Of a stretch of 64,000 bases of DNA, positions 16,211-47,041 are shown piece by piece. Within the stretch, counting starts at the first letter, position 1; every line of letters begins with the position of its first letter. The position numbers were made by a program, and so were the translations under genes. Location of the stretch: IMG/VR virus record IMGVR_UViG_3300027798_006580; one strand, written 5' to 3'. Below the pieces are notes generated by a model. The model did not search any database and was not told the origin of the DNA. It worked only from the letters and a program-made list of their open reading frames with translations. Origin of the DNA: a virus.

Positions 16211-16756
16211 TTAAATAGTTTCTTCCCAGGGTCCAGGAAACAATCTTATTAAGATCATGATCCTAGTCTGATCACCATTATTGACAACTCTGTGCGGAGT
16301 TTTTACTCCCAATATGTATGGCTCATATGTTTCAGCTTCATATATTAGTTCGCACTGGTCTTCGGTGTATCTAAAAAATTGATGAGTCTTACCCTTATTG
16401 TTTACTTTGACAATGGTATAATCAGAGTTCACTTTAAAAAAATTAATCCAAGTATTTTCACAGCCGATTATTGGTATATTTAAACTATGTTTAAAAGGAC
16501 CACTGTCCATGTGATAAGTTCCGGCGTCTTTTCCAACGGTTACGTTGACAGCAATCGAACCCACTGAATCGAGCATTTTTTTACTTTTTAAAAAATCGCG
16601 TAGTGCGGCAACTTTAAGAAATATTTCCTTATTATTTTCTATATAAGTTAATGTTGTTTTATCGAGTAAATATTCAGGTATTAATTTTAATACTTCTTGT
16701 TGTATTTCGTTGAGATTTTCGATGTGTACAGGCTTATAAAAATCAGCAGTGTTCAT
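16211..16756 (-). CDS. 2OG-Fe(II)/cupin oxygenase-like protein
   Basis: HMD...PHRVVN...RIMILIR. Confidence 0.7.
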   Translation of the reverse strand: MNTADFYKPVHIENLNEIQQEVLKLIPEYLLDKTTLTYIENNKEIFLKVAALRDFLKSKKMLDSVGSIAVNVTVGKDAGTYHMDSGPFKHSLNIPIIGCENTWINFFKVNSDYTIVKVNNKGKTHQFFRYTEDQCELIYEAETYEPYILGVKTPHRVVNNGDQTRIMILIRLFPGPWEETI

Positions 16757-16785
16757 AAAAAGTATTTATACCTATAAATATAATT

Positions 16786-17325
16786 ATGCAATTTATCAAA
16801 CTTAATAAAAAATTTGATGTTAGTAATTTTACAGAAACATCATTGATCAACGAATATGCCATCAATGGCAAGGGCATTGGATTCTATAACATTGATAATT
16901 ACAATAAAGATTTGATGCTTTCGGTTATCCCTGAGAGATATAGAAAAGATTTCTTTGCAAGAGAAATGAAAATAAATTATAACATTCCTCCTCATACAGA
17001 TAGCTACGTGTATGCTACTATAAATTTTTATGTCAAAGCCGTTGATTGCCAAACAAATTTCTTTAAGAAAGTAGATGCTAGCCTAGGAGTTAAAATGACT
17101 ACTCAAACTACTGGCAGGACATTTAAAGAAGAAAATTTAGAACACGCTGGAAGTTTTGTAGCAGAATCCGGAGATGCTTGGTTATTGGATGTGTCTAGCC
17201 CACACAGCGTTAAGAATCTAAAATCCAGTACTGTTGACAGAGTTGCTCTGGTATTACAATCAAGTAACTATACCTTTGATCAGGTACACAGTATGTTGCA
17301 AGAAACTGGTTACATCGACGATTAG
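16786..17325 (+). CDS. 2OG-Fe(II)/cupin oxygenase-like protein
   Basis: PHTD...PHSVKN...RVAL. Confidence 0.7.
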   Translation: MQFIKLNKKFDVSNFTETSLINEYAINGKGIGFYNIDNYNKDLMLSVIPERYRKDFFAREMKINYNIPPHTDSYVYATINFYVKAVDCQTNFFKKVDASLGVKMTTQTTGRTFKEENLEHAGSFVAESGDAWLLDVSSPHSVKNLKSSTVDRVALVLQSSNYTFDQVHSMLQETGYIDD

Positions 17326-17873
17326 ATTATAAATTCCTGAAATCTAAGTTTCGCTTCTGCCATAGTAAGTCTTTTTTTTGTTATTAAATCAACCAATACC
17401 ACAGTAATGCATAAACGATCTTCTTTTGTAGTAGTTACATTATGCGGACATCCCGCTTGCACTAAACTAGGATAACTTAATGGGCTACTTTCCGCCAAGT
17501 CGACCATATCTGGTCTCCATGGTATATATTGGGTATTGATCGGTGTTTTTTCTACTACGGCTGGCGCAGAAGATGTTTCTTTTACTTTATACCAATGCAT
17601 TAGACTGCCATGGCCGCCGTATATAAAATTTATTTTAACGTAATCACCTCCCATGCAATCTGTGTGGATTCCTTGTTTACTTAGGTTGGCATACGGACGA
17701 GAATAAAATGATTCCATGTACCAAATTTGTATACCAAGATTTTTTAAAAAATTAATAAAATCAGGATTTATATTTTCATGATCAATGGGAGTTTGATATT
17801 TCTTTTTCAACTCGAGGTGATCTATGGTCGCTGGATTAATATTTAAATTTAAATATACGCAATAATCGGACAT
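17322..17873 (-). CDS. 2OG-Fe(II)/cupin oxygenase-like protein
   Basis: IHTD...PHNV...RLCI; start reassigned to MSDYC; paralog of 39469. Confidence 0.7.
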   Translation of the reverse strand: MSDYCVYLNLNINPATIDHLELKKKYQTPIDHENINPDFINFLKNLGIQIWYMESFYSRPYANLSKQGIHTDCMGGDYVKINFIYGGHGSLMHWYKVKETSSAPAVVEKTPINTQYIPWRPDMVDLAESSPLSYPSLVQAGCPHNVTTTKEDRLCITVVLVDLITKKRLTMAEAKLRFQEFII

Positions 17874-17939
17874 AATTATATTTAGTCGTCGTTTGACTCG
17901 AACATCAAAGTATAGTATAATACAAACAAAGGAAAAATA

Positions 17940-18407
17940 ATGCCATGGATTGAAAACGTAGCCGCAGATGATATCCCAAAAAGATTCCATCACGAGCCTG
18001 GTGAGAACAGTATGCTGATCAGTATTGTCGATCCAGCAAGCTGGAGACCTATACCTGCTCACAAGTTTAAAGAACAGCATAATTTTGAGTTCCTTGACAT
18101 TGAAAAGAATGACTTTGCATTAGATGAAGCCATGCGTTGTAGCCAAGAGCAGGCCAATGAATTGGTAAGACTACTGCAACACGCCAAGCTCAATAGAATG
18201 AATGTTGTCGTTCATTGCTATGCAGGCATTTGTCGTAGTGGCGCGGTCTGCGAAGTCGGAGTGATGATGGGTTTTGAAGATACTGGACGATTCCGTAGCC
18301 CTAACTTACTTGTCAAGCATCGCATGATGAAAGCACTGGGATGGACTTATGATGAAGATGAAAAGCCCAACATTGATGATTGGCGAACTTTTAAAAATAA
18401 TATATAA
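17940..18407 (+). CDS. protein-tyrosine/dual-specificity phosphatase-like protein
   Basis: HCYAGICRS (CX5R); own TTGACT-N17-TATAAT promoter at 17893-17921. Confidence 0.8.
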   Translation: MPWIENVAADDIPKRFHHEPGENSMLISIVDPASWRPIPAHKFKEQHNFEFLDIEKNDFALDEAMRCSQEQANELVRLLQHAKLNRMNVVVHCYAGICRSGAVCEVGVMMGFEDTGRFRSPNLLVKHRMMKALGWTYDEDEKPNIDDWRTFKNNI

Positions 18408-18487
18408 AGTTAGTAGTTCGGATCTTTTCGGACATAATTTATTATAAATATATTACATGAATGTGTATTTAAATATTGGAGAATTAT

Positions 18488-19162
18488 ATGTATGATCAAC
18501 TAAAAACTTTGGTAGAAAAAAGAAAAACTCCACGTTTAGTAGAAACTGATAATATATCTGAAGAAAATATTCAAAAAATTCTAGATATTGCAAAATTAGC
18601 ACCCTCTCTTGATCAAAATTATGGATATAAAATCCATGCGTTAACTAATAGTACAGCCGGTATAGAAAAAAAAGAAGCTTTGTTAAAATATTATAGATGT
18701 ATGAATGGCGACGGCACACATCCAAAAATAACAGATCCGTATAGTGGCAGAGAAATGATACAACCAATTTTAAGTGGATTAAGTTTGGTATTTGTAGTTA
18801 CGCCTAAACGAGCTGTTACTATGAAGACCAATGGTATAGATACTTTGATTTTTTGTATCAGGGATGCAATGATATCGGCAACTTATGCCATGATGGCCGC
18901 AGAAAGCCTTGGCTTCAAAGCAGGAGTGTTTGGTAATGTAGATAATAACGGTTTAGAACATTACCCCAGCGCAACAGCATTGTTCAGTGATGCACCCGGA
19001 GCTAGAATTATATTAACAGTTACAGTGGCTAATAAACTAGTTTCCATTCCAGAAGTTGATGAGAATGGCCGGCATTGGTTTGATTACAAAGGAGAACGTC
19101 CTTATGTTTTACCCAATAAACACCAACAGAAAACTGTAATGCCCGAAGTTATCATGACATGA
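18488..19162 (+). CDS. nitroreductase-like protein
   Basis: KRKTPR...AKLAPS...YAMMAAESLG. Confidence 0.65.
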   Translation: MYDQLKTLVEKRKTPRLVETDNISEENIQKILDIAKLAPSLDQNYGYKIHALTNSTAGIEKKEALLKYYRCMNGDGTHPKITDPYSGREMIQPILSGLSLVFVVTPKRAVTMKTNGIDTLIFCIRDAMISATYAMMAAESLGFKAGVFGNVDNNGLEHYPSATALFSDAPGARIILTVTVANKLVSIPEVDENGRHWFDYKGERPYVLPNKHQQKTVMPEVIMT

Positions 19163-19731
19163 TACCTTTTAAATATATATCAATTAAAGAACATCAACTA
19201 ATTTCTGATAAGTTATATGATTATGTTTTACATCACACTGATGTATTAAAAAACGCATCTCCTTGGACTACTTTAAAAAAGGATGATGTTTTAAAATTTG
19301 TTCCTGAGTTAGCAGTTGAATTAAGAAAAATAGTCGATGCAGATATAGAAATGATTTCTATAATACATAGAAAGCCCAAAGTTTACGGGGGTGTACACAT
19401 AGACTCTGGTGGCCTTATTAGGATGTTATTTCCGGTTAGAAATTGTGCAGGATCTTATACTAAGTTTTTTGATTTGAACGGAAACAGTGTCATCGAAAAA
19501 AAAGGCAATGAAGGAGACACATTCTTTGCTATAAGCCAATATGACGCAGTCAATGACTGTATTATTGGAAACGGAAATCCGTTAAAGGAAATTTGTGCAG
19601 CCGAATTAATTTCCCCAATCGTGTTTGATTCAGGAATAGCCCACGGTGTGTACACAAATCCCGATTGTCTAGGACCCCGGCTAACTGCCACCATTGCGTT
19701 CACCAAAGATATAAAATATTTACTACAATAA
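19159..19731 (+). CDS. 2OG-Fe(II)/cupin oxygenase-like protein
   Basis: VHID...AHGV...RLTATI. Confidence 0.7.
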   Translation: MIPFKYISIKEHQLISDKLYDYVLHHTDVLKNASPWTTLKKDDVLKFVPELAVELRKIVDADIEMISIIHRKPKVYGGVHIDSGGLIRMLFPVRNCAGSYTKFFDLNGNSVIEKKGNEGDTFFAISQYDAVNDCIIGNGNPLKEICAAELISPIVFDSGIAHGVYTNPDCLGPRLTATIAFTKDIKYLLQ

Positions 19732-19819
19732 TAACTTATTGCATGTAATTGTTTTTCAATAATATTGACATATATCAGTGTATATGTTAAAATACAAATT
19801 CAAATGAAAGGAGCAATAT

Positions 19820-20422
19820 ATGCCCAGTGTATTTTTAGTCAGCGACACGCATTTCGGTCACACCGGAGTATGTCGCTTCACACGCAACGACGGAGTTACA
19901 AAACTTCGCCCATGGGACGATGCCGACGAAATGGACGAAGAAATGATCCGTCGTTGGAATGACAGCGTTCGACCCAACGACAAAGTTTATCACCTGGGCG
20001 ATGTTGTCATTAACCGTAAGTCATTGAAAACTCTTGCTCGTCTAAACGGCGACAAGGTGCTAATTCGTGGCAACCACGACATCTTTCGAGATGACGAGTA
20101 TAGAGAATACTTTCGAGAACTACGTGCTTACCATGTTATGAACGGAATGATACTTAGCCATATTCCTGTACACAGTGATAGCTTAGGTCGTTTTGGCACT
20201 AACATTCACGGACACTTACACGCAAATCGTGTACGTAAGGCCCGCGGAGTCGATGCACGTACCGGAGAAATCTTATACAGTGACGAACCGGATGTACGCT
20301 ATCATTGTGTTTGTGTAGAGCAAACTGACTTTGCTCCTATCTTATTTGAAGATGTTATCAAACGTATTGAAGAAGAAGGCGGAAGTGTAGGTTTTAAAAA
20401 CGGCAATAATACTATTACATAA
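19820..20422 (+). CDS. calcineurin-like phosphoesterase
   Basis: SDTHFGH, HLGD, GNHD, HGHLH; sigma70 promoter at 19765-19793. Confidence 0.9.
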   Translation: MPSVFLVSDTHFGHTGVCRFTRNDGVTKLRPWDDADEMDEEMIRRWNDSVRPNDKVYHLGDVVINRKSLKTLARLNGDKVLIRGNHDIFRDDEYREYFRELRAYHVMNGMILSHIPVHSDSLGRFGTNIHGHLHANRVRKARGVDARTGEILYSDEPDVRYHCVCVEQTDFAPILFEDVIKRIEEEGGSVGFKNGNNTIT

Positions 20423-20458
20423 TAGTATTATACAATTTTACTTGAAAGAAATATTAAA

Positions 20459-21274
20459 ATGAAATATCTAATTAGTTTACTAATGTTTTTAATTAGTGGA
20501 TGTGTCAGTGTTAATTCGTCTGGTATGTCTAGGCAGACTGTAGATTCAACAACAGTTGACATTATTATTACTAACAATAATGGCCCTACAATACTATACA
20601 TTCCTGGGTGTAATGGATTAGATAAATCAGGCAAACAGTATCAGCAATATCATTTGAAAAAATTCCAAGAAGTATGGCCCAGCGCCAACATTGTCATATC
20701 GCAGTATGTGAATGACTATACTAAAGGTGAAACTGGCGGGAAGTGTGATTGGTCTGATGATAATGTCAAACTTATTGGAAAACAAATTAGTAATCAAGCC
20801 GAACATACTCAGAAACTTGGAGATTGGATCAAAACACAGCCGTGGTCCAATGGTGATGTTCATTTGTTCGGATTTAGTTATGGCGGCGCTGTTGGTTTAT
20901 GGGCACCTGCTCATAACCGCTCTACTGTTACCGGTAAGCCTTATCTGTTTAAAACAGTGGCCTTAATTTGGCCAGATTGTAGGCCGCGCCGCCAGTTTTT
21001 TGGAAATATACATACACCCTTGCGTATTTGGTCAACTGAACTCGATCCGTTGAGTATTCCTAATAATTGTTCATCTTTTTATACAGACAGTGATAAAAAA
21101 TTATCATTGAAGCTTTATCCGGGCGATACACACAGTTGGATGACATCCCCTAACTTTACTCCGTTTACTAGGTACTGGCCCAATCAAAAAGTTCATGTCC
21201 GCCATGAGTTTAAAAAGGAATGGGCAGATGAAACTTTTAGAGAGTGGCAACAGTGGGCGTTGCAACCAAACTAA
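20459..21274 (+). CDS. lipoprotein alpha/beta hydrolase (dienelactone hydrolase-like)
   Basis: lipobox ISGC; GFSYGG nucleophile elbow; D and H (YPGDTHS). Confidence 0.7.
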   Translation: MKYLISLLMFLISGCVSVNSSGMSRQTVDSTTVDIIITNNNGPTILYIPGCNGLDKSGKQYQQYHLKKFQEVWPSANIVISQYVNDYTKGETGGKCDWSDDNVKLIGKQISNQAEHTQKLGDWIKTQPWSNGDVHLFGFSYGGAVGLWAPAHNRSTVTGKPYLFKTVALIWPDCRPRRQFFGNIHTPLRIWSTELDPLSIPNNCSSFYTDSDKKLSLKLYPGDTHSWMTSPNFTPFTRYWPNQKVHVRHEFKKEWADETFREWQQWALQPN

Positions 21275-21320
21275 TAAGAGTTTTAATTATAAGTATTTGA
21301 TAACTAACATTGGAGAAATT

Positions 21321-21548
21321 ATGACAGATCAAGAAAAATTCGACTTTCTAAGATCAGCTTTTACAGACCTTTTTAAAAAGGAAATGCCAGACGTTACTAG
21401 ACTCACACCGCTTCAAGATCTGGGATTAGATAGTTTGGATATTGTAGAACTACAACTAGAATTCGAAGAACGTTACAGTGTAGAAATCTCAGATCCTAAA
21501 AATGATATTAAAACAGTGGGCGATTTGTTAGATCATTTGGCAATGTAA
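21321..21548 (+). CDS. acpP: acyl carrier protein
   Basis: DLGLDSLDIVEL phosphopantetheine site, IKTVGD; SD ggag. Confidence 0.9.
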   Translation: MTDQEKFDFLRSAFTDLFKKEMPDVTRLTPLQDLGLDSLDIVELQLEFEERYSVEISDPKNDIKTVGDLLDHLAM

Positions 21549-21549
21549 T

Positions 21550-22368
21550 ATGCAGTCTAGTGATGAACTTTATACCAGTAGAATTAAACCAATTAGAGAT
21601 GATTTTGTTTCTAGTATAATTTCATCGGCAACGGCCGAAACGTTTAGTCCCTATGATAAAGAATTCAATTGGGCTGAACGCATCGGTCCAATTAAGCGTT
21701 TACAAATTACCACTCTGCGCTGGTCTGCGAATTGGTTAACTGGTTTAGAAAAATTCCCTTTTATGTATGTTACTGATGGTAACACCGATTATCTAATCAG
21801 CCTATTTAATCGCAGTTACAATATAGCATGGAATAAGGATGACTATAGTTATTACCAACATTGGCATAGTGCAACAGGCAGACCCTATACAGAGTTATCT
21901 GAACCTGCAGATGTCGACGACTTAGTAGTATCCTGGCCAGGATATAATTATGGTGATAATACTGAATTAACATTTGCCAATCAATGCACTGCTAAAAGAA
22001 TGCATTTAGACTGCGCTTATTTGGGTATGGTAAAGCCCACTAATCTAGATGTCAGTAATTTTGAAACCGTTGGGATTAGTTTTAGTAAAACATTGTCAAT
22101 TCCGTATAATCGAATAGGCGTGTGCTTTAGTAAAACAGAAATAAAAGACATATCTTTATTGAATAAGATAGGCTACGTAAACTTATCCGGAGTTAAGCTG
22201 GCAACTCATATTATGAGTAAACTACCACCTGATTATTTTTGGAATACTTACGGTGGCGACAGATTGACTGCTATGTGCGAAAAACACGGACTAACAAAAA
22301 CAGACAGCATATTGATTGCCTATAAAAATGGCAAAAGAGTTGGCACTGCTCCTTACTGGCAGGAATAA
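21550..22368 (+). CDS. PLP-dependent (fold type I) enzyme
   Basis: LDCAY and SFSKTL...RIG motifs. Confidence 0.7.
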   Translation: MQSSDELYTSRIKPIRDDFVSSIISSATAETFSPYDKEFNWAERIGPIKRLQITTLRWSANWLTGLEKFPFMYVTDGNTDYLISLFNRSYNIAWNKDDYSYYQHWHSATGRPYTELSEPADVDDLVVSWPGYNYGDNTELTFANQCTAKRMHLDCAYLGMVKPTNLDVSNFETVGISFSKTLSIPYNRIGVCFSKTEIKDISLLNKIGYVNLSGVKLATHIMSKLPPDYFWNTYGGDRLTAMCEKHGLTKTDSILIAYKNGKRVGTAPYWQE

Positions 22369-22376
22369 ATAATTGC

Positions 22377-23024
22377 ATGAAAGAAACTTTTTTATTTAAA
22401 ATTCTAGAAATAGAAAATATCAGTATTTTAGAACAAGAGCTGGCTGTTTTTTATAAGCGGCACAGAACTGTTGGAGTAGTAAATCGTAAAAATAAAGACG
22501 GTAATACAATTATGATATTATCCGATCCCAACAACCCCGAAGCTGATAGTTTGGGTCCATTGGAAAAATTTACATTTGTTCATTTAGATTCTAATCGTGT
22601 AATGAATCATTTGCCAGAATTACAAAAATATTTTATTAAAAATAATTTAGGTGACATCGAACGCATAGCCTATGTAAGCACTCCCCCACATTCAATAAAT
22701 GCAACACACATGGATCAGGGACCAGAAATTCTGGCATTAAATTTTCCATTAACAGATTGTTCTAGTTCTTATACTCAATTTTTAAAAAACAACGGACGAT
22801 TAGAAGCAGTGGAGTTAATAGACATTGTTAAAGGAACCAAAGAGAAACGAAAGTTTATGAAGTTTGTCACCGACGATCCCATTGAAGTTGGAAGATACAC
22901 ACTAAATGGGCCAGTGATGTTAAATATAAAACAACCACACGGAGTTATTAATTACGGACCAGTGCTTAGAGCCGGAATAAGTTTTAGATTTAAAAAAGAC
23001 CCTTGGCATCTTGTTGGAGAGTAA
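22377..23024 (+). CDS. 2OG-Fe(II)/cupin oxygenase-like protein
   Basis: HMD...PHGVIN...RAGISFRF. Confidence 0.7.
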   Translation: MKETFLFKILEIENISILEQELAVFYKRHRTVGVVNRKNKDGNTIMILSDPNNPEADSLGPLEKFTFVHLDSNRVMNHLPELQKYFIKNNLGDIERIAYVSTPPHSINATHMDQGPEILALNFPLTDCSSSYTQFLKNNGRLEAVELIDIVKGTKEKRKFMKFVTDDPIEVGRYTLNGPVMLNIKQPHGVINYGPVLRAGISFRFKKDPWHLVGE

Positions 23025-23026
23025 AA

Positions 23027-23830
23027 ATGTTAAAATATAATTTAAAAATGGTATCTGACACCCCGCTGGAAGTAATGCCAAAAGAACTAGTAGATAGGAT
23101 ATTAGAGTGGCATGACAGTAAGAAACATAAACTTGATAATATTGGCGCAAGCACATTGGATTATCCTTGGGCAAGTTCACATATTAGAAATGACGTAGAT
23201 ATCAACGATCCTGTGAGAGTGGACAACTCAATTCCAGGAAATCCGTGGAATAATGAATTTGTTGTTAAATTTCCCGAAGCTTTGCATTATTTTAATCAAT
23301 TGCCATTGACTTATATTGAAAGAATTGTATTATTAGAATCCACTAAAGAAGTTCTTAGCCATGTAGACCGTAGTAAAAGTCACGTGCCCGATGCTACATG
23401 TGAACCCGCTAGCTATCGAATGCATCTTCGAGGCTGTGAAAAGAAGGGTTTTTATGTACAAGGTAAGCCTATGTCCGAATGGGGCAGTAGACGTGCTATA
23501 GAGCCGGTTAGTGCAGGATTTACACATTTAACTAAACGTTTACCTAAGAAATTTTGGCAAGGAAAAATAGGCAGCTGGTGGCTATTAAATAATTTCTGTG
23601 CCCAACATGGATCTACCTACGAACCGGGTGATAACAAAGTTATTATTTCGGTACAAGGTACTATTGATTCAGTACGGCACAAAAAATTGCTAGAGAACAA
23701 TGAGGACCGAGGATTGAATTGTATCAAGCACGAAGAACTATACAAATACGAAGAACAATATACTCCTGAAGAAAGACGTACATTTGAACATTTGATCAAC
23801 GAAACAAAGTTTAATGAACATGTCTGGTAA
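23027..23830 (+). CDS. 2OG-Fe(II)/cupin oxygenase-like protein
   Basis: HVD...QHGSTY...KVII. Confidence 0.65.
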   Translation: MLKYNLKMVSDTPLEVMPKELVDRILEWHDSKKHKLDNIGASTLDYPWASSHIRNDVDINDPVRVDNSIPGNPWNNEFVVKFPEALHYFNQLPLTYIERIVLLESTKEVLSHVDRSKSHVPDATCEPASYRMHLRGCEKKGFYVQGKPMSEWGSRRAIEPVSAGFTHLTKRLPKKFWQGKIGSWWLLNNFCAQHGSTYEPGDNKVIISVQGTIDSVRHKKLLENNEDRGLNCIKHEELYKYEEQYTPEERRTFEHLINETKFNEHVW

Positions 23831-26537: not shown

Positions 26538-26558
26538 ATTTAATTATAAATACATATA

Positions 26559-37278: not shown

Positions 37279-37282
37279 TATA

Positions 37283-38107: not shown

Positions 38108-38114
38108 GTAAGTT

Positions 38115-38189: not shown

Positions 38190-38208
38190 AATTTTTAAAG
38201 GAATTAAT

Positions 38209-38406: not shown

Positions 38407-38423
38407 TTTAAAGGAAATATAAA

Positions 38424-38582: not shown

Positions 38583-38904
38583 AGATTAAAGTTTTTTGGT
38601 AGTATATCCACAAGATAACTACCCGGAGAAAAGAAAGAGATGAGAACTAACACCGTTATCGCTTCATGCGATACCGAACAAATTATTGGCTGGCGCCTTG
38701 AAAACGCCTCGTGCCTGTGTGCTCCAACCCTCGGGATATGACAGAATTGTGTCTTGCTCCTGGATATACACAGGTCTCTGTGCCTTGTGCATTGTGACTT
38801 GTCAGGATTTTAGTTAAAGCTAATCCGCATGTTATTTGTCCAGTTGGTTACTTTCTTTCTTGACTCTGTTTTTATTTTGTTGTATAATTATTTAAAGGAA
38901 ATAT

Positions 38905-39474
38905 ATGAATATCAGTCTACGTAAAGCCAGTGTATTGCAGAACAGTATCAATGATGTCGTCAAAGGCATCGACCTTAAAGGTCAAGTTAGTCTAACGGAA
39001 TTCCATGATCCAATCATGGAAATTTATAAAGCTACGACTGTGTTTAAAACTAATTTGAATCGTCGAGATTCTTTGGTTAAAGCACTGTATGACATTCGCA
39101 AGCAAGTCAGCGCAGTTAACAGTCGTGTGGGCATAGACGACAAACTCACAGAGATTGCTGGTCTTGAAAAGCAAATTCAGAACTACACAGAGTTGTCTGG
39201 CTTTGCAGTTCGCGAACAAGAAGCAGTTGTGTTGGGCAAGTTGGACAAGATTAAAAATCGTAAAGAAGAAGGTCGCAGTATCTACGGTTACGAAAGCACA
39301 GTGGCCACTAGTGTGTTCACTGAAGAAGACATCAAGGGCTTTAAAGTTTTTGTAAATCTGGCCAAGAAAGCTAAACAACGTCTTCAAGACGAAGTTCTGG
39401 AATTGAATGTGCGTACTGACATCGGTCTAAGTGTAGACACGGTTCAAATATTGAAGTCAGAAGAATTATTATAA
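38905..39474 (+). CDS. coiled-coil hypothetical protein
   Basis: promoter TTGACT-N17-TATAAT at 38860-38888, SD aagga. Confidence 0.75.
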   Translation: MNISLRKASVLQNSINDVVKGIDLKGQVSLTEFHDPIMEIYKATTVFKTNLNRRDSLVKALYDIRKQVSAVNSRVGIDDKLTEIAGLEKQIQNYTELSGFAVREQEAVVLGKLDKIKNRKEEGRSIYGYESTVATSVFTEEDIKGFKVFVNLAKKAKQRLQDEVLELNVRTDIGLSVDTVQILKSEELL

Positions 39475-40002
39475 GTATTGTTCGAACATTTCAATTGATT
39501 CTGCCATAGTTAATCTAGTATTATCTTGTTTTTTTAATACTAAACTTAGGCAGTATCTGGGTTCTTCAAAATTATGTATGTTATGAGGAATACCAACTTG
39601 AACTATACTAGGAAAATTTACTGGCTGTTTATCGATTAAGTCAACTTGGTCGATCTTATAATCTATATAAAAACTATCGGTTGAGTTGAGTTCTGCACTA
39701 TTCGATATATTAGGTTTTTGTTTCCACCAATACATTAAACTGTTTTTGCCGCCGAATACATAATTGAGTTTGATATAATCTCCGCCTGTGTCATCGAGAT
39801 GTATTGTACTAAAACGAAAAGGACGATTGTAAAATAATTCTACCCGGCCAATGGTTAGATTTAAAGTTTTTAAAAATAAAATTAAATCATTGTTAATATC
39901 GTCAATTGATATTTTAATATGATTGTGTGTGCCATATGAGTTTATATTTAAATCCTTTCTCAGAGGACTTATGTCTAGATTTATATTAAGACAATTAATC
40001 AT
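39469..40002 (-). CDS. 2OG-Fe(II)/cupin oxygenase-like protein
   Basis: IHLD...PHNIHN...RYCLSL; start reassigned to MINCL. Confidence 0.7.
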   Translation of the reverse strand: MINCLNINLDISPLRKDLNINSYGTHNHIKISIDDINNDLILFLKTLNLTIGRVELFYNRPFRFSTIHLDDTGGDYIKLNYVFGGKNSLMYWWKQKPNISNSAELNSTDSFYIDYKIDQVDLIDKQPVNFPSIVQVGIPHNIHNFEEPRYCLSLVLKKQDNTRLTMAESIEMFEQYL

Positions 40003-40014
40003 AAATATATTTAT

Positions 40015-40090
40015 CGCGGGGTACGTCAGTTGGTAGACTATCAGGCTCATAACCTGGAAGACGGAGGTTCGAGTCCTTCCCCCGCAACCA
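40015..40090 (+). tRNA. initiator tRNA-fMet (CAT)
   Basis: C1:A72 mismatch, cgcgggg acceptor, CCA. Confidence 0.9.
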
Positions 40091-40091
40091 A

Positions 40092-40256
40092 TTATAAACT
40101 GTGAATATAATCTAAAGCAGAATCTAAGTTAGTAAAGTACAGCATTTCAAAGTCATTGCTAAAAATATCTTTGACAATGATATAGCAGATGCCTTGCTTG
40201 CTTAGACTTACATGAAAATGTAGGCCTGCTTCGGTGACAATGTCATAGGATTGCAT
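40092..40256 (-). CDS. 54-aa hypothetical protein (not in ORF track)
   Basis: TAAATA-N5-ATG; MQSYDIVTEAGLHFHV... Confidence 0.5.
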   Translation of the reverse strand: MQSYDIVTEAGLHFHVSLSKQGICYIIVKDIFSNDFEMLYFTNLDSALDYIHSL

Positions 40257-40476
40257 AGTAGTATTTAATCAAAGAAAACCCGGTTACACTTTGACGTCTA
40301 AAGTGGGTAGGGCAGTTACCATAAAGAGTGCTAGGTATGTAGTGCTATGACCATCCGTGCTCTGTTGTGGAGTGGCGGGAACGCATTAGGTAAGGTATAA
40401 CACCTGCCCAAAAGAATAAATGTTATGGACAGAGTAACAGCTCAGTTTAGGGCCTATGTGGTGTAGGTAGCTAAAC

Positions 40477-40542
40477 ACTTTATTATAGCATATTGTAATC
40501 AAATGAGTGTGCAATGTCTGCTGAAGTGTGCTATAATAAAGT
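40477..40542 (+). ncRNA. long-stem cassette RNA directly before tRNA-Gly
   Basis: 18-bp stem actttattatagcatatt/agtgtgctataataaagt, 30-nt loop. Confidence 0.6.
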
Positions 40543-40544
40543 AT

Positions 40545-40618
40545 GCGGGATTAGTTTAATGGTAAAACAGCAGATTTCCAATCTTCGGTCAAGAGTTCGA
40601 TTCTCTTATCCCGCTCCA
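40545..40618 (+). tRNA. tRNA-Gly (TCC)
   Basis: cloverleaf, CCA. Confidence 0.9.
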
Positions 40619-40637
40619 ATTTATTAAAGGATTCATC

Positions 40638-40817
40638 ATGGCACATGAAGCAGGCAAAGGTTCAATTCCCAGGCCATTTAGTATCGCGCAAGAAGAGTAC
40701 AATTCTAGATGGGACGCTATATTTGGTCGCGATTCAAAAAAAGAAAAACAAGAAGACGTATTGTCCGACGACAATCGTTTAGATTCTAAATTTGATAAAC
40801 TAAAAGAAGAAAATTAA
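40638..40817 (+). CDS. small hypothetical phage protein
   Basis: SD aagga; GKGSIPRPFS...RWDAIFG. Confidence 0.6.
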   Translation: MAHEAGKGSIPRPFSIAQEEYNSRWDAIFGRDSKKEKQEDVLSDDNRLDSKFDKLKEEN

Positions 40818-40818
40818 A

Positions 40819-41271
40819 ATGTTACATTTAATTCAAAATCTCAGTGATAAATTTGTCGACTTGATTGGTCAAGATCCAGTGCGTCCACACATTCCCCGGA
40901 CAGAGCGTGTTGGTGCAAACAAAGATATTTTTGTAACCAGAGACGAGAATGACAATGTGCAAGCAATTACCTGTGTCAGTTATCAACTAACTGTGCCTTG
41001 TTCTGAATCCGAATTATTTGAAACCTGCAATGAGCCCAAAGTTGCTGTATTTTATACTATTTGGAGTTATGCACCGGGCGCAGGGAAAAAATTAATCTTT
41101 AATGCAGTAAAACATATCAAAGAAAATCAAAAAACAATTAACAGATTCGTAACGCTGAGTCCAAAAACTGATATGGCTAGAAAATTTCATATTAAAAATG
41201 GAGCCGTGGTTTTTAGAGACAACGAAGAATCTGTTAACTACGAATACATAAACAACGAAGTCGAAAGTTAA
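40819..41271 (+). CDS. minimal malonyl-CoA-decarboxylase-like (GNAT-fold) protein
   Basis: AVFYTI, RFVTLSP, ARKFHIKNGA resemble MCD catalytic-domain motifs. Confidence 0.55.
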   Translation: MLHLIQNLSDKFVDLIGQDPVRPHIPRTERVGANKDIFVTRDENDNVQAITCVSYQLTVPCSESELFETCNEPKVAVFYTIWSYAPGAGKKLIFNAVKHIKENQKTINRFVTLSPKTDMARKFHIKNGAVVFRDNEESVNYEYINNEVES

Positions 41272-41284
41272 GTAAATATATATT

Positions 41285-41361
41285 CGGAGTGTAGCGCAGT
41301 CTGGTAGCGCACCTGGTTTGGGACCAGGGGGTCCAAGGTTCGAATCCTTGTACTCCGACCA
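41285..41361 (+). tRNA. tRNA-Pro (TGG)
   Basis: cloverleaf, CCA. Confidence 0.95.
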
Positions 41362-41391: not shown

Positions 41392-42171
41392 ATGAATTAC
41401 AAACGAATCATCAACAATGCTCTTGCGTCTAACACGCAATATCTACCCTATGTACAACTCAGTGCTACAGCACTGGTTCTACTCTATGCATTACTTTTAC
41501 CACAAGTTGGTTCACTGTGGTTGTTAAGTGTGCTAATGTATGTGGGCATAGGCGGCCTTGGAATCAGTATAGGCTTTCATAGACTATTAACACACAAAAG
41601 TTTTAAGACCAGTAAATTCTGGGAATACTTTTGTGCCACATGGGGTGCGCTAGCTTTTACTGGCAGTGCAATAGGTTGGGTAGGCATGCACAGGGATCAT
41701 CACAAGTACAGCGACAAGCCCGGTGACCCACACAGTCCCATGGTCAGTGGTCCCAAGATGTTGGTAGCTGCCTATGACTATGAGCCAAACAAATGGAAAA
41801 TACGACACTTGATTTTTGACAAGTATCATATCTTCATGCACAAGTGGTATTTTGGTCTGCTATTATTATGGACAATATTCTGGGCCGTCATAGATCCTGT
41901 GTTGGCCATGCACGTTGTTGTCATCCCCGCGGTGTTCAGCGTTTGGAGTAGTACAACTAGTAACTATATGAACCATCGCTGGGGTTATAAGAATTTCGAA
42001 ACCAGTGACAACAGTCGCAACCTTTGGATCAATGCTGTGTTCACATTTGGCGAAGGATGGCACAACAATCACCATGCACGACCAGGTAACTATGACTTTG
42101 GATCTGGCACCAGCGGCAAGTGGTGGGAATTCGATCCTGCTGCCAGAGTCATTGAATTAATTAGACGATGA
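41392..42171 (+). CDS. membrane acyl desaturase (delta-9 type)
   Basis: HRLLTH, HRDHH, GEGWHNNHH. Confidence 0.92.
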   Translation: MNYKRIINNALASNTQYLPYVQLSATALVLLYALLLPQVGSLWLLSVLMYVGIGGLGISIGFHRLLTHKSFKTSKFWEYFCATWGALAFTGSAIGWVGMHRDHHKYSDKPGDPHSPMVSGPKMLVAAYDYEPNKWKIRHLIFDKYHIFMHKWYFGLLLLWTIFWAVIDPVLAMHVVVIPAVFSVWSSTTSNYMNHRWGYKNFETSDNSRNLWINAVFTFGEGWHNNHHARPGNYDFGSGTSGKWWEFDPAARVIELIRR

Positions 42172-42923
42172 TATTTGGATCCACAAGTAGAAATATAAAT
42201 CTACTAACTATTTTTGTTTTTATTAACAGCGTAGTTGGATTGTTTTTTGTTGATTACACATTAAACAACATACTAATCATGTTAACAAGTTTTTATGTTT
42301 TGAACATCCTAGGAGTATGGATGACATTTCATAGATATTATAGTCATAAAAGTTTTGCACTAAATCCCGTGCTTAAATGGCTGTTCTCTGCTATTGCTTT
42401 ATTAACAGGTCGCGGCAGTATTTTAGGATGGGTTTATTTGCATAGACTGCATCATGCATATAGTGACCAAGACAAAGATCCGCATAGCCCGCATAATTTA
42501 GGATATAAATTATTTGGCTTTGGACACATGAAACAACAAGAGGGTGAAATGAAGATATTCTTAGTTAAAGAATTAATGACACCGGCTCAATTGTTTATAC
42601 ACAAATGGTACATGCTTTTATTACTGCCTGTGATTTCTGTATTAGCTTTAATAGATCTGCAATTATTCTATTGGGCTTGGCTAGTTCCTGCCATGCTAAT
42701 ACAAATTAGTACCAGCAATTTTAATTATTTTGGTCATAGGTTTGGTTATCGTAATCACGAAACAAAAGATCATAGTAGAAATAATGCATGGCTTTGGCCC
42801 ATTATACTGGGCGAAGCATGGCACAATAATCATCACAGCGATGCAAAGAATCCCAGCACAACATATAAATTCTGGGAAATAGATCCTTTGGCATGGATGA
42901 TTAAACTAGTATGTACAAAGTAA
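42168..42923 (+). CDS. membrane acyl desaturase (delta-9 type)
   Basis: HRYYSH, HRLHH, GEAWHNNHH. Confidence 0.92.
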   Translation: MIFGSTSRNINLLTIFVFINSVVGLFFVDYTLNNILIMLTSFYVLNILGVWMTFHRYYSHKSFALNPVLKWLFSAIALLTGRGSILGWVYLHRLHHAYSDQDKDPHSPHNLGYKLFGFGHMKQQEGEMKIFLVKELMTPAQLFIHKWYMLLLLPVISVLALIDLQLFYWAWLVPAMLIQISTSNFNYFGHRFGYRNHETKDHSRNNAWLWPIILGEAWHNNHHSDAKNPSTTYKFWEIDPLAWMIKLVCTK

Positions 42924-43552
42924 AAAAATACAATAAATTAACCAAGTCAGAACTAAAACATTTTTGGGATACTATAGAATCGGAATGTCAAAAAGATTCC
43001 AGTCCTGCCATGGTCAATATGCACAGCAAAACTTGGCGAAATGAAAATAATACTCTGCGCTATATATTGGAAGTGGACGACAAATTCAATCTCGGTGAAT
43101 ACTTTGTGTTGTTTGACGATGAACTACCTGTGGCCAGTGGCGGAGTTTACTTCAGTGAATGGACTGATGATATCGCAATGGCGGGTATCAGAACATGGGC
43201 ACACACTGAACATAGAAACAAATTATTGGTCGCTGAATACATTCTTCCCGCATGTAAAGCATGGGCAGTTGAAAACAAATGTAAATCTATTACGTTGACA
43301 TTTAATGATTACAATAAAAATTTAATCAAAGTATGTATTAGAACTCGTGCCGGTGAAAGTGCTACTAGAATTTCTGGCAGAACTCCGCGACGATTATTCT
43401 ATAATGGTGCAAATGTACTTGACTTTCCTTTGGAAATCAACTATACTAAGCAATGGCTGATATACGAAAAGTTAGACAGTGAATTTTTATTTAATTGGGA
43501 AGAATTTAAATGGCGGGACAAGATGAAGATAGTAAAGAGAAAACTGGGTTAA
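42911..43552 (+). CDS. GNAT-like protein
   Basis: YFVLFDDELPVASGG...RTWAHTEHRNKLL. Confidence 0.55.
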   Translation: MYKVKKYNKLTKSELKHFWDTIESECQKDSSPAMVNMHSKTWRNENNTLRYILEVDDKFNLGEYFVLFDDELPVASGGVYFSEWTDDIAMAGIRTWAHTEHRNKLLVAEYILPACKAWAVENKCKSITLTFNDYNKNLIKVCIRTRAGESATRISGRTPRRLFYNGANVLDFPLEINYTKQWLIYEKLDSEFLFNWEEFKWRDKMKIVKRKLG

Positions 43553-44122: not shown

Positions 44123-44323
44123 ATGGCTAGAATTACCAGTGAAAAAGCAGTGGAAGCAGTGGGAAACAGATTTGATCTAGTGTTGATCGCTAGTCAACGT
44201 ACCCGAGAATTGAAGCGTGGCGCTATGCCAAAAGTTTCAAGTAAAAATAGCGCAGTAGTAACAGCATTGCGTGAAATCGAAGCAGGCCACATAGGTCGTG
44301 ATTATTTAAAACGTATTAGATAA
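44123..44323 (+). CDS. rpoZ: RNA polymerase omega subunit
   Basis: MARIT...VGNRFDLVLIAS.R.REL...VTALREIEAG. Confidence 0.9.
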   Translation: MARITSEKAVEAVGNRFDLVLIASQRTRELKRGAMPKVSSKNSAVVTALREIEAGHIGRDYLKRIR

Positions 44324-44367: not shown

Positions 44368-45066
44368 ATGAGATCATCAGAAGATAAAGAATTGCTAGTG
44401 TCCAGATTCACTGACACTATCTATGTAGAAGAATTTCTACAGCCTGAAGAAATCCAGTATCTAGTCGAGTTGTTTGATAACTCAAACAACAAAATTTACA
44501 AGAACACAGGACCAGTGACCTGCGATTCTATTATGAAAGATCCTATTCTAGAATCTATAGTAGAAAGACTCCGACCTTTAATTGGTGATTTTAAGATTTA
44601 TTCTGCGGCATTCTTTAATGTAAAAACGCCGCATATCATACACAATGATGACGAGAAGTCATTTCCTTTGACTTATAAAGCAATTACATTGCCATTGAAA
44701 TTAGAGTATTTTGTGGTTTCTACAGAGCTACCCAGTCTATGTATCTTTGATCAGTATTACTTGGAAGGACCAAGTAAATTTTTTAATGGCTCCAATAATA
44801 TTCCTACATATTATAATCAACAAGTCTACGAATACTCTCAAGTACAAAACAAATCCTTGACTGGTATCAGTGCCAATGACATGCAGAAATATCTAACACA
44901 TATAAAACCAAATTGGTTACATGGACTTAGTTTAAATTCGATTCATGCATGGAAGCCGGGATCTGCAATTATATTCGATGCATTAAAACTTCATTGTGCC
45001 AGCGACTTTAGACAGCGCGGCATTATCAGCAAACTGGGTATCAGTATTTTTACATACACTGATTAA
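44368..45066 (+). CDS. 2OG-Fe(II)/cupin oxygenase-like protein
   Basis: IHND...LHCAS...KLGISIF. Confidence 0.6.
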   Translation: MRSSEDKELLVSRFTDTIYVEEFLQPEEIQYLVELFDNSNNKIYKNTGPVTCDSIMKDPILESIVERLRPLIGDFKIYSAAFFNVKTPHIIHNDDEKSFPLTYKAITLPLKLEYFVVSTELPSLCIFDQYYLEGPSKFFNGSNNIPTYYNQQVYEYSQVQNKSLTGISANDMQKYLTHIKPNWLHGLSLNSIHAWKPGSAIIFDALKLHCASDFRQRGIISKLGISIFTYTD

Positions 45067-45068
45067 TT

Positions 45069-45671
45069 TTACAAAAATAAAATTTTACTGTCGTTGACAT
45101 TTTTTGCGGCATCTTCATAATCTTGGAATACTTTTATGTAGGTAAGGTCAAACAAAAGACTTGTTCTTTTACCTACATAATTATCCACTGCATGTATCGC
45201 TGAATTATTAATTAGATACCATTTGTTAAGATCAAATTTATATCGATTTATTTCTGTCAGTTCACTTTTTTCAAACATTCTAGCAGCCACGGTATTACTA
45301 ATATCCTTTTGTTTGTAAAATACAGTATCAGCCGCGCCTTCTACTACATAGATTATACTCATCTTTCTAAAGGTATCTGTATGCGGCGGCAGTTCGTTGA
45401 TACTTCGTTGCAGTGTTATATATTCTAAAAATTTTCTATTAATTTTGTGACCATGAAAAATCTCATCAAGGAAATTCATATGCTCTGGCCATTTCTGCAA
45501 TTGATAAGATCCAGCCGTTTCAACTTCAAAATCATCCTGAACCATACTTTTACCCTGTTCTATTCTTTTGAACCTTTTTCCGTAATGCTTGTACTGTTCA
45601 TAATGTTTGATTATTTTTTCAGAGACTTCTGTGCCCAATGGCGGCCAGTTTAACTCAATGGCATTATTCAT
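45069..45671 (-). CDS. 2OG-Fe(II)/cupin oxygenase-like protein
   Basis: PHTD...IHAVDN...RTSL. Confidence 0.7.
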   Translation of the reverse strand: MNNAIELNWPPLGTEVSEKIIKHYEQYKHYGKRFKRIEQGKSMVQDDFEVETAGSYQLQKWPEHMNFLDEIFHGHKINRKFLEYITLQRSINELPPHTDTFRKMSIIYVVEGAADTVFYKQKDISNTVAARMFEKSELTEINRYKFDLNKWYLINNSAIHAVDNYVGKRTSLLFDLTYIKVFQDYEDAAKNVNDSKILFL

Positions 45672-45676
45672 ATAAA

Positions 45677-46393
45677 TCAATGCCCGTGTTTAAGATTTGC
45701 AATCAATTTAGATACATTGTCAGTGGTAAACGGTACATTGAGAATCAGATGTATGCTGTTGTCGACCCAGCTAATTGTTCTATGTGTTCGTCTAGTGTTA
45801 ATGTAATAAGCCCGGCCTTCTTCAATTTGGAGTTTTGTATCGGTGCCGATTATCCAGTCATAGTCATAGGTTCCGCAATTTTTTAAAAACACTGCAATTC
45901 TAAATGTTTCTCTTGGTATTTCAGGATGGTCCCTGTGTGGAGTAAAATATCCGCCCATGTTACTTTTTACTAAAAATGTTCTGCCCAATGGAGAGAATGT
46001 ATCCAATAAAGGATGTAAACTGGGACAATTTTGGTAAACTTCTGTGTGGTGAGAAAACTCTTTCTCAAATACTTTTCTACCGGCAGCATGACTGGCCTGT
46101 GCTTGGCTGGGATTATCCTGATGTGTTTTGCCTTCAAGGTTAGTAACCGCTAGACCTTTTCTATTATTAAGTCTATCTGCTCTTGGCAAATAATCTACCC
46201 AGTCACTGTCAAATTTCGCAATTTCACGATTGAACTGTCCTGGATCTATAAAAAAGTTTAAAGATTCAAAGTCTCCCAGTGTTAATAACGCTAATTCATC
46301 CGTGACAGTTTCTTGGCTAATTGTGGCGCTGTTATATTTGGTGGGTCTTCTCACAGCATGTTTTTTACCTACAATAATATTTTTGTTATTCAT
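45677..46393 (-). CDS. Asp/Asn beta-hydroxylase-like 2OG oxygenase
   Basis: GGYFTPHRD...INTRRTH...HLILN. Confidence 0.7.
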   Translation of the reverse strand: MNNKNIIVGKKHAVRRPTKYNSATISQETVTDELALLTLGDFESLNFFIDPGQFNREIAKFDSDWVDYLPRADRLNNRKGLAVTNLEGKTHQDNPSQAQASHAAGRKVFEKEFSHHTEVYQNCPSLHPLLDTFSPLGRTFLVKSNMGGYFTPHRDHPEIPRETFRIAVFLKNCGTYDYDWIIGTDTKLQIEEGRAYYINTRRTHRTISWVDNSIHLILNVPFTTDNVSKLIANLKHGH

Positions 46394-46525
46394 ATTATAA
46401 TTTATTATCTCTATTCAGAATACAAGATGCACATTGCGATTATCAATCTCACCGATACTACCTGCAAAAGACTGTTATTGTGATAAACGACATTAGAGAT
46501 TCGACTATCTTGAATAAATATCAAT

Positions 46526-47041
46526 ATGCATATACAGTTTAAATCAATGTACCCTGAATTCAAAGAAATAGTGGATCAATGTATATATCTAGGCAAGCAA
46601 TACGCTGATTGGCCGAATAACGAAGACGGCCAGCTGGCTATTCAAACAGATGATCCAAATATAGATAACTGGACTTCTGGAATAGGAAAAAGTGTTGCAA
46701 AAACTCCCGAGTGGGAGCAACAATTTAAATATATTCAACCAAGTTTAATTGGCACGCCCGTAGATAAATATATCAAATGGCTAGGTATTCCCGTTTATCG
46801 AGCAAGAATTATGTTATCTAAATCTAAATCTTGTTACAGTGTTCATAGTGATCACAGTCCAAGATTGCATTTACCGTTGATAACTAATAAGCAATGCAAT
46901 TTTTTAATAACAAATCCGATACAAATGTTTCATCTACCAGCAAATGGAATGACAACTTGGATTGATACAACTAAACCACATACTTTTATGAATGGCAGTT
47001 TGGAAAATAGATTACATCTAGTAATGATAACAAAGGAATAA
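46526..47041 (+). CDS. Asp/Asn beta-hydroxylase-like 2OG oxygenase
   Basis: YRARIM...HSD...RLHLPL...HTFMNG...RLHLV. Confidence 0.75.

Follow-up and report, generated by a model that had tools for sequence, protein, structure and literature searches.

Do twenty open reading frames (ORFs) crowded into 31 kb of viral DNA, each with an HxD motif and a downstream His, really encode enzymes of one superfamily, and if so, what could so many of them be doing in one place? The question is raised by positions 16,211 to 47,041 of a 64,000-nucleotide stretch, below called the window, which corresponds, in reverse complement, to the first 64 kb of the 77,435-bp virus record IMGVR_UViG_3300027798_006580; IMG/VR classes this record as a provirus-type fragment, ~22% complete. 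An earlier note on the window had read the twenty ORFs (c01 to c20, Table 1) as a diversifying arsenal of oxygenase-like paralogs. We hold with high confidence that at least 14, and probably 18, of them belong to the Fe(II)/2-oxoglutarate (2OG)-dependent oxygenase superfamily with its double-stranded beta-helix (DSBH) fold. That this membership, together with a surrounding gene block acting as one multi-step oxidative tailoring pathway, is the best joint explanation of the locus seems to us fairly probable; the pathway itself, with an acyl, amino-acyl or amino-lipid substrate, is proposed more tentatively, at somewhat below an even chance.

All twenty ORFs are indeed open, at the positions first proposed or with a start a few codons away, and each contains HxD and a downstream His. 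They account for roughly half of the protein genes of the 31-kb region, which holds ~41 such genes and 10 tRNA genes. The hallmark of the superfamily is an HxD/E...H triad with a basic residue about 10 positions past the distal His, which binds the C5 carboxylate of 2OG. A loose form of this motif, H.D-(35-130)-H-(7-13)-[RK], is also present in 12 of the window's other 65 non-overlapping ORFs, and after shuffling a mean of 11.6 of 85 proteins still carry it; the 32 observed against about 12 expected are a real excess, but with a chance rate of ~14-18% of proteins the motif is not diagnostic, and membership must therefore rest on homology or fold. The basic residue, which the earlier note had described as usual, is invariant in the two large families defined below, is lacking in c19, and is an Arg at +13 in c13 and c14.

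All-against-all blastp, a local profile comparison of 25 families and searches with hidden Markov models (HMMs) sort the candidates into three groups. The first is an AspH-like supergroup with the signature PHxVxN...R: FamA (c01, c04, c05, c08), FamC (c03, c16), c02 and c18, in which FamA and FamC correspond to the 'H-x-V/I...R' subgroup of the earlier note. The second, FamB, has the signature HxD...R...N-x4-HG...K and comprises c06, c07, c09, c10, c11, c12 and probably c14; its first six members (starts 23027, 24557, 26559, 27184, 27986, 28649) are the 'HG(A/S)...K' subgroup of that note. The third consists of AspH-family singles: c15 (33748) and c20 (46526), which correspond to the AspH-like subgroup of the note and are recovered by Pfam Asp_Arg_Hydrox, and probably c19. 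Between families, hhalign gave 98.1% for FamA-FamC, 95.9% for FamA-c02, 95.7% for FamB-c06 and 83.7% for c02-c18; among 300 family pairs all eight at 15% or more are candidate-candidate pairs, and none of the contig's 89 non-candidate ORFs scores above 4.6% with the FamA or FamB profile. FamA against FamB gave 0.6%, that is, no sequence kinship is detectable by hhalign, and a kinship of the two families is suggested by their predicted folds only. It should be noted that in the FamA+FamC alignment used for this comparison and for a search of PDB sequences (A5) the c03 row lacks its C-terminus; this row was left out of the deeper FamA profile. The PDB-sequence profile searches with FamA+FamC, c13, c14 and the block protein x29456 returned spurious matches or none.

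The curated libraries see very little of this. At E <=0.01 Pfam recognises c15 and c20 only, the same two that reach the PF05118 gathering threshold of 22.6 bits (61.1 and 23.3, the latter just above the cut-off; c20 orthologues match PF05118 at 1.7e-5 and 4.4e-6), so that most candidates have no Pfam assignment; with E allowed up to 10, c02 matched AspH at 0.17 and the other sub-threshold candidates nothing relevant. PHROGs gave a single match, c15 to a family of unknown function, and NCBIfam, scanned with seven candidates, only a far sub-threshold match of c15. PF05118 is also matched weakly (best 4.9e-4) by 6 of the 129 members of A8, a mixed and visibly misaligned alignment of an aminotransferase-FamA fusion, whose members were scanned against Pfam. 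All 66 database relatives of FamB are likewise without a Pfam domain, which bears out the suggestion that the HG...K proteins are an unclassified family; FamA and FamB are both phage-specific families without a name in Pfam, PHROGs or NCBIfam. Their presumed active-site residues are strictly kept: H113, D115, R127, N165, H170 and K180 are invariant in 65 FamB sequences, and H111, D113, H188 and R198 in 103 FamA sequences. A halogenase-type HxA/G...H arrangement was looked for and not found, all 20 ORFs having HxD, with the Asp invariant in FamA and FamB. PhyH gave no Pfam match, and PhyH structures align to the FamA model with Z 8.8-8.9, not among the top rows.

Fold carries the assignment further. 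The structure prediction suggested by the earlier note was run with AlphaFold (AF2) for one representative of each large family, c09 for FamB (65-sequence alignment; pLDDT 96.2, pTM 0.92) and c05 for FamA (103 sequences; pLDDT 94.6, pTM 0.90), and both models match Fe(II)/2OG oxygenase folds. They were aligned to PDB structures, and the best 50 rows of each were examined. For c09, aligned exhaustively to 48,161 PDB representatives, 48 of these 50 are named oxygenases, hydroxylases or AlkB-type enzymes, headed by PHD 6f0w (Z 10.6, root-mean-square deviation (rmsd) 3.4, 160 residues aligned), proline 3-hydroxylase 1e5r (Z 10.5) and 4iw3 (Z 10.3); Foldseek against the PDB gave PHD2 (E 7.7e-5), ABH2, AspH and proline 3-hydroxylase, with E from 8e-5 to 1e-3 and TM ~0.45-0.53. 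For c05, 45 of the best 50 rows are named oxygenases, the remainder cupins or uncharacterised proteins; a nucleoside-antibiotic hydroxylase (7v4p, Z 11.9, rmsd 2.9, 137 aligned; Foldseek 7v4f, E 6e-6) and human AspH (5apa, Z 11.3, rmsd 3.5, 150 aligned) come first, followed by 6n1f and a chlorovirus prolyl hydroxylase. Among predicted viral structures (BFVD), uncharacterised proteins of uncultured Caudovirales are closest to c09 (TM 0.84, 0.78, 0.78); one neighbour (TM 0.78, 18% identity) is auto-named phytanoyl-CoA dioxygenase. DSSP places H113 of c09 at the end of a strand, H170 within strand 168-172 and K180 at the opening of strand 180-186, and in c05 H188 within strand 188-192 and R198 within strand 198-205; in the models, the triad and the basic residue of both families thereby occupy the canonical strand positions of the DSBH, as a predicted metal site. 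The best structural neighbours of FamB (PHD2, the P. putida prolyl 4-hydroxylase (P4H), proline 3-hydroxylase, IDO and ABH2, Z 9.7-10.6) have the same HxD...H...basic layout; however, FamB shares 8-15% identity with prolyl hydroxylases, AlkB-type enzymes and free-amino-acid oxygenases, with no one family clearly ahead, and the invariant R127, N165 and Gly after the distal His are features of FamB's own.

The case is thus graded. It is strong for 14 ORFs: c06, c07 and c09-c12 of FamB, c01, c03, c04, c05, c08 and c16 of FamA/FamC, and c15 and c20. It is moderate for c02, c14, c18 and c19, which we call oxygenase-like, and c13 and c17 remain motif-only candidates, so that the oxygenase-like reading of all twenty in the earlier note stands for eighteen. 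The link of c02 to FamA is stronger with the family profile (hhalign 95.9%) than with the single sequence (49%), and the FamA HMM finds it among 153 ORFs at E 2.1e-8. The divergent c06 reaches hhalign 100% (E 5e-43) against a FamB profile that includes c06 itself; the independent comparison is the 95.7% given above. Two genes are probably shorter than first drawn: for c03 the likely start is Met70 (about 17873), where its homologues begin, since the long form runs into the phosphatase gene 17940-18407; for c16 it is Met17 (about 40002), since its long form overlaps tRNA-Met 40015-40090.

That some of the twenty are not oxygenases at all, and show HxD...H by chance or within another fold, is a somewhat doubtful alternative, which applies to c13 and c17, with c19 and c14 as less likely cases. 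The motif is frequent enough by chance to allow it, and neither c13 nor c17 has a significant profile match: hhalign relates c13 to FamA at 4.4% and to FamB at 0.1%, none of its 37 homologues (all at least 50% identical) has a Pfam domain, and its Ralstonia phage homologues gave zero Pfam matches; c17 has no match in Pfam, PHROGs, NCBIfam or the phage collection, reaches only 6.5% in hhalign and finds a single weak match (E 3.6e-5, 24% identity) in the related contig G003. These points weigh against full membership, as does the fact that c19 rests on a gene of the Pelagibacter phage Mosig (Mosig_00081, 31% identity, E 4e-18) which is annotated Asp_Arg_Hydrox and is itself sub-threshold on PF05118 (E 0.0028, 18 bits vs 22.6). 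On the other side, 34 homologues of c13 all keep its H267, D269, H314 and R327, the alignment of c13 to FamA, insignificant as such, falls on the distal-His/Arg/(N/D)PW segment, and the Atlas sets partly point to AspH (in one viral cluster set, 16% of members have PF05118); with the FamA HMM, c17 (E 0.0055) comes ahead of all non-candidate ORFs, the first of which scores 0.094. For c14, profile-profile comparison with FamB gave 49% (E 1.7e-4, 116 columns) with HxD, N-x4-HG and RIDG in register, and its HMM finds c09 at 0.0018, the first non-candidate following at 0.87.

How old the paralogs are bears directly on the arsenal proposed by the earlier note, in which recent duplication and divergence would yield new specificities in an arms race with the host. 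All five records used for the comparisons are fragments. Copy number does vary among five records (17, 11, 8, 15 and 13 HMM-detectable members; 8-15 in each related contig), c10 forms a unique long branch, and blastp at E 1e-4 finds no orthologue of c15, c17, c18 or c19 in four related contigs, the weak G003 match of c17 aside. However, FamB orthologues between related phages are 60-73% identical and paralogs only 22-32%, and in the FamB tree, seven inner branches of which have starred support, the stems (1.2-2.2 changes per site) are 3-10 times as long as the tips (0.1-0.4). The orthogroups of c09 and c12 are present in 5/5 records, that of c11 in 4/5, of c07 in three and of c06 in two, and the catalytic residues are invariant. 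The FamB paralogs are therefore ancient and separately maintained, each except c10 with a conserved orthologue, rather than a fast-diversifying arsenal, which we consider very unlikely; the pattern suggests orthogroups under purifying selection with stable synteny.

The phages in which these genes are maintained also differ from those first imagined. A locus search with an alignment of orthologues found eight related loci in viral contigs and none in prokaryote genomes (one genome per species); c09 as a single-sequence query found zero, a phage collection searched with block DNA, protein and c09 gave no match, and the homologues located so far all come from uncultured viral or metagenome contigs. 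The window's exact DNA is contained in lake and freshwater metagenomes. With G001 at 142 kb (40% complete) and G005 at 250 kb (67% complete), genomes of roughly 350 kb are estimated, and the T4 major capsid family Gp23 was found in two of the five records (G005, E 6e-99; G001 partly). The related records are accordingly fragments of T4-like freshwater phages. The cyanophage frame of the earlier note finds no backing: the photosystem gene PF00124 (psbA-type) was not found in the five records, which is weak evidence as they are fragmentary, and the nearest cultured phages with single-gene homologues are Pelagibacter, Ralstonia and Limnohabitans phages.

What, then, might the oxygenases do together? 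From 18,476 to 33,330 the genes lie on one strand with ends touching or overlapping, in the order nitroreductase-like, c04, metallophosphoesterase, alpha/beta-hydrolase, acyl carrier protein (ACP), x21550, c05, c06, GDSL hydrolase, c07, c08, x25707, c09, c10, c11, c12, x29456, FA_desaturase (DES1), c13 and c14. A core of this order is kept in G001-G004: (ACP) - aminotransferase - FamA - two to four FamB - x29456 - desaturase - c13 - FamA - c14. The aminotransferase is x21550: in its family (52 sequences) P130, D154 and K180 of an SxSK motif are invariant, and its profile finds in the PDB histidinol-phosphate aminotransferase (HisC, 1.3e-7), then ACC synthase and AspAT. In class-I/II aminotransferases dependent on pyridoxal 5'-phosphate (PLP), an Asp binds the pyridine nitrogen and a Lys carries PLP; the SxSK Lys, the Asp and the profile similarity place x21550 in this class. 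Aminotran_1_2 is matched by 13 of the 129 A8 members (best 1.8e-9), and x21550 of the window alone has no Pfam match. Aminotransferase and FamA are also joined in natural in-frame fusions of 468 and 467 aa, P0118 (L021:8061-9464 (-), in G003) and P0156, which are 61% identical over full length. A further protein, P0201 (556 aa), contains two FamA-type stretches. The two-domain protein x29456 has homologues at L027:11493-12634 and L025:8289-9438, is divided between two neighbouring genes in G002 and G004, and gave no match in Pfam, NCBIfam or PDB sequences. DES1 matches the NCBIfam DesA-family desaturase weakly (1.2e-16, 60.8 bits vs a cut-off of 400) and has orthologues 70-77% identical in four of four relatives; a second module at 41.4-44.1 kb holds DES2, DES3 and a GNAT-type transferase. 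Pieces of the block were found with 0-1 mismatches over 17.2-34.1 kb in four metatranscriptome libraries.

Table 1. Candidate oxygenases (c01-c20) and partner genes in the window (positions in nucleotides, lengths in amino acids, aa).
Feature	Position	Strand	Assignment and evidence
c01	16211-16756	-	FamA, 181 aa; blastp to c05, c08, c04; hhalign to FamA 99.9%; keeps H, D, H, R
c02	16786-17325	+	Divergent FamA/AspH-like, 179 aa; moderate
c03	17322-18080	-	FamC, sister group of FamA; 39% identical to c16; hhalign to FamA 99.0%
c04	19159-19731	+	FamA, 190 aa; blastp, hhalign 99.8%
ACP	21321-21548	+	Acyl carrier protein, ~75 aa, DSLD serine motif; Pfam PP-binding 4e-9, NCBIfam 3.4e-12
x21550	21550-22368	+	Small class-I PLP aminotransferase-like protein, 272 aa; family profile
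c05	22377-23024	+	FamA, modelled representative, 215 aa
c06	23027-23830	+	Divergent FamB, 267 aa
GDSL hydrolase	23814-24560	+	GDSL-type lipase/acylhydrolase; Pfam Lipase_GDSL_2 9.5e-8
c07	24557-25201	+	FamB, 214 aa; orthogroup in 3/5 records
c08	25198-25722	+	FamA, 174 aa; 35% identical to c05; hhalign 100%
c09	26559-27191	+	FamB, modelled representative, 210 aa
c10	27184-27975	+	FamB, 263 aa, long branch; among five records only in this phage
c11	27986-28648	+	FamB, 220 aa; orthologues 67-68% identical in three relatives; orthogroup in 4/5 records
c12	28649-29299	+	FamB, 216 aa; orthologues 62-73% identical; orthogroup in 5/5 records
x29456	29456-30616	+	Two-domain protein, 386 aa; conserved in block core
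DES1	30629-31441	+	Membrane fatty-acid desaturase/hydroxylase family; Pfam FA_desaturase 2.4e-13
c13	31445-32581	+	Conserved 378-aa protein; HxD...H...R in C-terminal third
c14	32578-33330	+	Probable distant FamB relative, 250 aa; moderate
c15	33748-34401	-	AspH family, 217 aa; Pfam Asp_Arg_Hydrox 1.5e-16, 61 bits vs cut-off 22.6
c16	39469-40050	-	FamC; hhalign to FamA 99.9%
DES2, DES3	41392-42923 (DES2 41392-42171, DES3 42168-42923)	+	FA_desaturase family; Pfam 3.5e-17, 1.3e-15
x42911	42911-43552	+	GNAT-type acyl/acetyltransferase; orthologues Acetyltransf_1 9.4e-6, 4.3e-4, window copy 0.14
c17	44368-45066	+	Motif-only candidate, 232 aa
c18	45069-45680	-	Divergent FamA/c02-like, 203 aa; moderate; FamA HMM E 8.2e-8, c02 HMM E 8.6e-6, hhalign to c02 83.7%
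c19	45677-46393	-	AspH-like by way of a Mosig homologue, 238 aa; moderate; basic residue near +10 lacking
c20	46526-47041	+	AspH family, 171 aa; Pfam Asp_Arg_Hydrox 6.2e-5, 23.3 bits vs cut-off 22.6

The conserved order in G001-G004, the ACP beside the aminotransferase, the natural fusions and the old, conserved FamB orthogroups are the reasons for which we favour, tentatively as said, a tailoring pathway; an island of similar composition in phage Mosig and the metatranscriptome pieces across the block are further ones. In such a pathway, every orthogroup would be responsible for a single regio-specific hydroxylation or desaturation of a common small-molecule substrate, most likely an acyl- or amino-acyl/amino-lipid intermediate bound to a carrier or to the membrane; the aminotransferase would introduce an amine or take one away, the GNAT, x29456, GDSL and alpha/beta-hydrolase proteins might transfer or release acyl groups, and the ACP would be loaded by host enzymes.

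Several observations weigh against this proposal. A shared fold is silent on function, and the fold neighbours mix protein prolyl hydroxylases, AlkB-type nucleic-acid demethylases and free-amino-acid hydroxylases within 1 Z unit. Only in G001 and G003 does the ACP immediately precede the aminotransferase, and it was not found in the contigs (fragments) of G002 and G004; the earlier statement that all six HG...K genes sit in an ACP operon is thus true of the window, and the ACP adjoins the block in only two of four related contigs. The five fragment records yielded neither a phosphopantetheinyl transferase (PPTase, PF01648) nor an adenylating enzyme (PF00501); a self-contained carrier pathway is therefore only conjectural. 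Eight candidates, c01-c03 and c16-c20, are placed away from the main same-strand block, and some of them are on the opposite strand. Finally, the RNA-library contigs are compatible with DNA carry-over; they leave some bins at 25.3-28.0 kb uncovered in three of four runs, which is no sign of silence.

These eight outlying genes also speak for an alternative in which independent oxygenases, each acting on macromolecules, by hydroxylation of proteins of host or phage (ribosomal proteins, EF-Tu, structural proteins) or by oxidation and demethylation of nucleic acids, are merely stored in one variable region. AspH hydroxylates proteins, and the top folds include the HIF and EF-Tu prolyl hydroxylases (6f0w, 4iw3), AlkB homologues, FTO, YcfD and AspH. 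An AspH-like gene is moreover reported as core to all pelagimyophages (PMC7029224). The order ACP-aminotransferase-desaturase kept as a core in four relatives is, however, not what mere storage would leave, the aminotransferase-FamA fusion in two clusters points to small-molecule chemistry, and oxygenases of free amino acids and natural products score equal to protein hydroxylases; we therefore regard independent action on macromolecules as unlikely.

Still less can be said for a metabolic sink or redox device, in which the enzymes would consume 2OG and O2 or yield succinate and thereby reshape nitrogen or energy signalling of the host. The same idea was proposed for cyanomyoviruses with 1-5 such genes (PMC3037559), and at 47-49.6 kb, a short way downstream, there are genes for Fe-S assembly, a ferredoxin and a redoxin. 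Yet a sink has no need for ~18 ancient paralogs with conserved orthologues of their own and distinct substrate-side residues, and it leaves the linkage and fusion with the ACP and the aminotransferase unexplained, for which reason it appears highly improbable to us. The downstream genes themselves (47043-50025 (+), directly after c20) encode Fe-S_biosyn, a 7Fe-type ferredoxin (DUF3470), a Bax1-I membrane protein, a redoxin and a dCMP deaminase, in an order kept in G001 and G003; they could support iron-enzyme function.

Several known systems bear comparison with this locus. Cyanomyoviruses are likewise T4-like and carry several DSBH oxygenase genes of unknown substrate: Sullivan et al. 2010 (PMC3037559) describe 1-5 2OG-Fe(II) oxygenases together with PhyH-like proteins, and for P-HM1 and P-HM2 two asparaginyl beta-hydroxylases as well as an ACP and its synthetase. 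P4H and 2OG oxygenases of cyanophages are also among the BFVD fold matches of c09. The copies in cyanomyoviruses are, however, recognised by Pfam, whereas the 18-20 present here are mostly invisible to Pfam, PHROGs and NCBIfam, and no ACP synthetase such as that of P-HM1/P-HM2 was found in the five fragment records. An AspH-like protein is core to pelagimyophages too (PMC7029224), and an island of similar composition is that of Pelagibacter phage Mosig EXVC030M (MT647606, Mosig_00072-00088): it holds a nitroreductase, two AspH-like proteins, an FA_desaturase, a 262-aa class-I aminotransferase, TauD and an N-acetyltransferase, has three radical S-adenosylmethionine (SAM) genes beside it, and includes direct homologues of c19 (31% identity) and DES1 (33%). 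It differs in having 3 DSBH genes in the stretch against 18-20, no detectable FamA or FamB, and an aminotransferase without blast similarity to x21550.

With the AspH family (PF05118; human 5apa, 9fvu) FamA shares the distal H-x-V-x-N...R, and c15 and c20 pass the family's cut-off; in contrast, FamA, FamC, c02 and c18 stay sub-threshold and are single-domain proteins of ~175-215 aa without tetratricopeptide repeats or a membrane anchor. The lipid hydroxylases LpxO and OlsC are members of the AspH family as well. SyrB2 and the CurA halogenase, which depend on carriers of non-ribosomal peptide synthetases (NRPS) or polyketide synthases (PKS), resemble the present system by the ACP in the block and by folds, as FamA matches CurA Hal 3nnf (Z 8.7) and SyrB2 2fcu (Foldseek E 2e-4). 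In contrast to these, FamA and FamB keep the Asp of HxD, and PPTase and adenylation genes were not found in the fragment records, as described; unlike in NRPS/PKS pathways, a ketosynthase (KS) gene was not found here. In the literature, supplements not covered, no description was found of an island this dense or of FamA/FamB.

Some further genes of the window deserve mention. Ten tRNA genes lie at 34851-41361 among the oxygenase genes (Leu-tag, Ser-gct, Val-tac, Asn-gtt, Ala-tgc, Glu-ttc, Asp-gtc, Met-cat, Gly-tcc, Pro-tgg), a stretch that has by far the highest depth in the RNA libraries, partly from tRNAs of other organisms. Between tRNA genes and upstream of DES2/DES3, a 150-aa ORF (40819-41271 (+)) matches the C-terminal domain of malonyl-CoA decarboxylase weakly (8.8e-5, just under the cut-off), and a 66-aa ORF at 44123-44323 (+) matches the RNA polymerase Rpb6/omega family (PF01192, 8.3e-15) and has a 49%-identical copy in G004; a phage-encoded omega-like subunit is unusual. 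Upstream of the candidates, three radical-SAM genes (9106-10521, 12845-14095 and 15179-16126 (+)), two of them NCBIfam N_Twi_rSAM (4.7e-80, 5.8e-77), are found near a PP-loop ATPase (8108-8758). Far downstream, SBP_bac_3, a sodium:dicarboxylate symporter (6e-66) and an Asp/Glu racemase (2.8e-40) follow in a row (54944-58611 (+)); such a set for transport and racemisation is unusual for a phage and may be host-derived or tied to the provirus label of the record.

Phage 2OG oxygenases are among the commonest auxiliary genes without a known substrate, and FamA and FamB add two well-defined, structurally confident phage-only families that curated libraries have missed. Their conserved context (ACP, fused aminotransferase, desaturases, acyltransferases) turns oxygenases of this kind into a testable pathway hypothesis, and the locus, where candidates are about every second protein gene over 31 kb, is an extreme example of how much coding space large phages can give to oxidative chemistry. 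If the proposed pathway is true, it would widen the known range of phage-directed synthesis and offer new oxygenase specificities for biocatalysis. Going one step further, it is possible, though we find it rather doubtful, that large T4-like freshwater phages carry a natural-product-like operon, with an ACP, a PLP aminotransferase, membrane diiron desaturase/hydroxylases and at least ten Fe/2OG oxygenases from two phage-only families, whose products would, in the course of infection, make or alter a poly-oxygenated metabolite of amino-lipid or amino-acid origin; were this true, phages would direct a form of secondary or lipid metabolism that has so far gone unrecognised.

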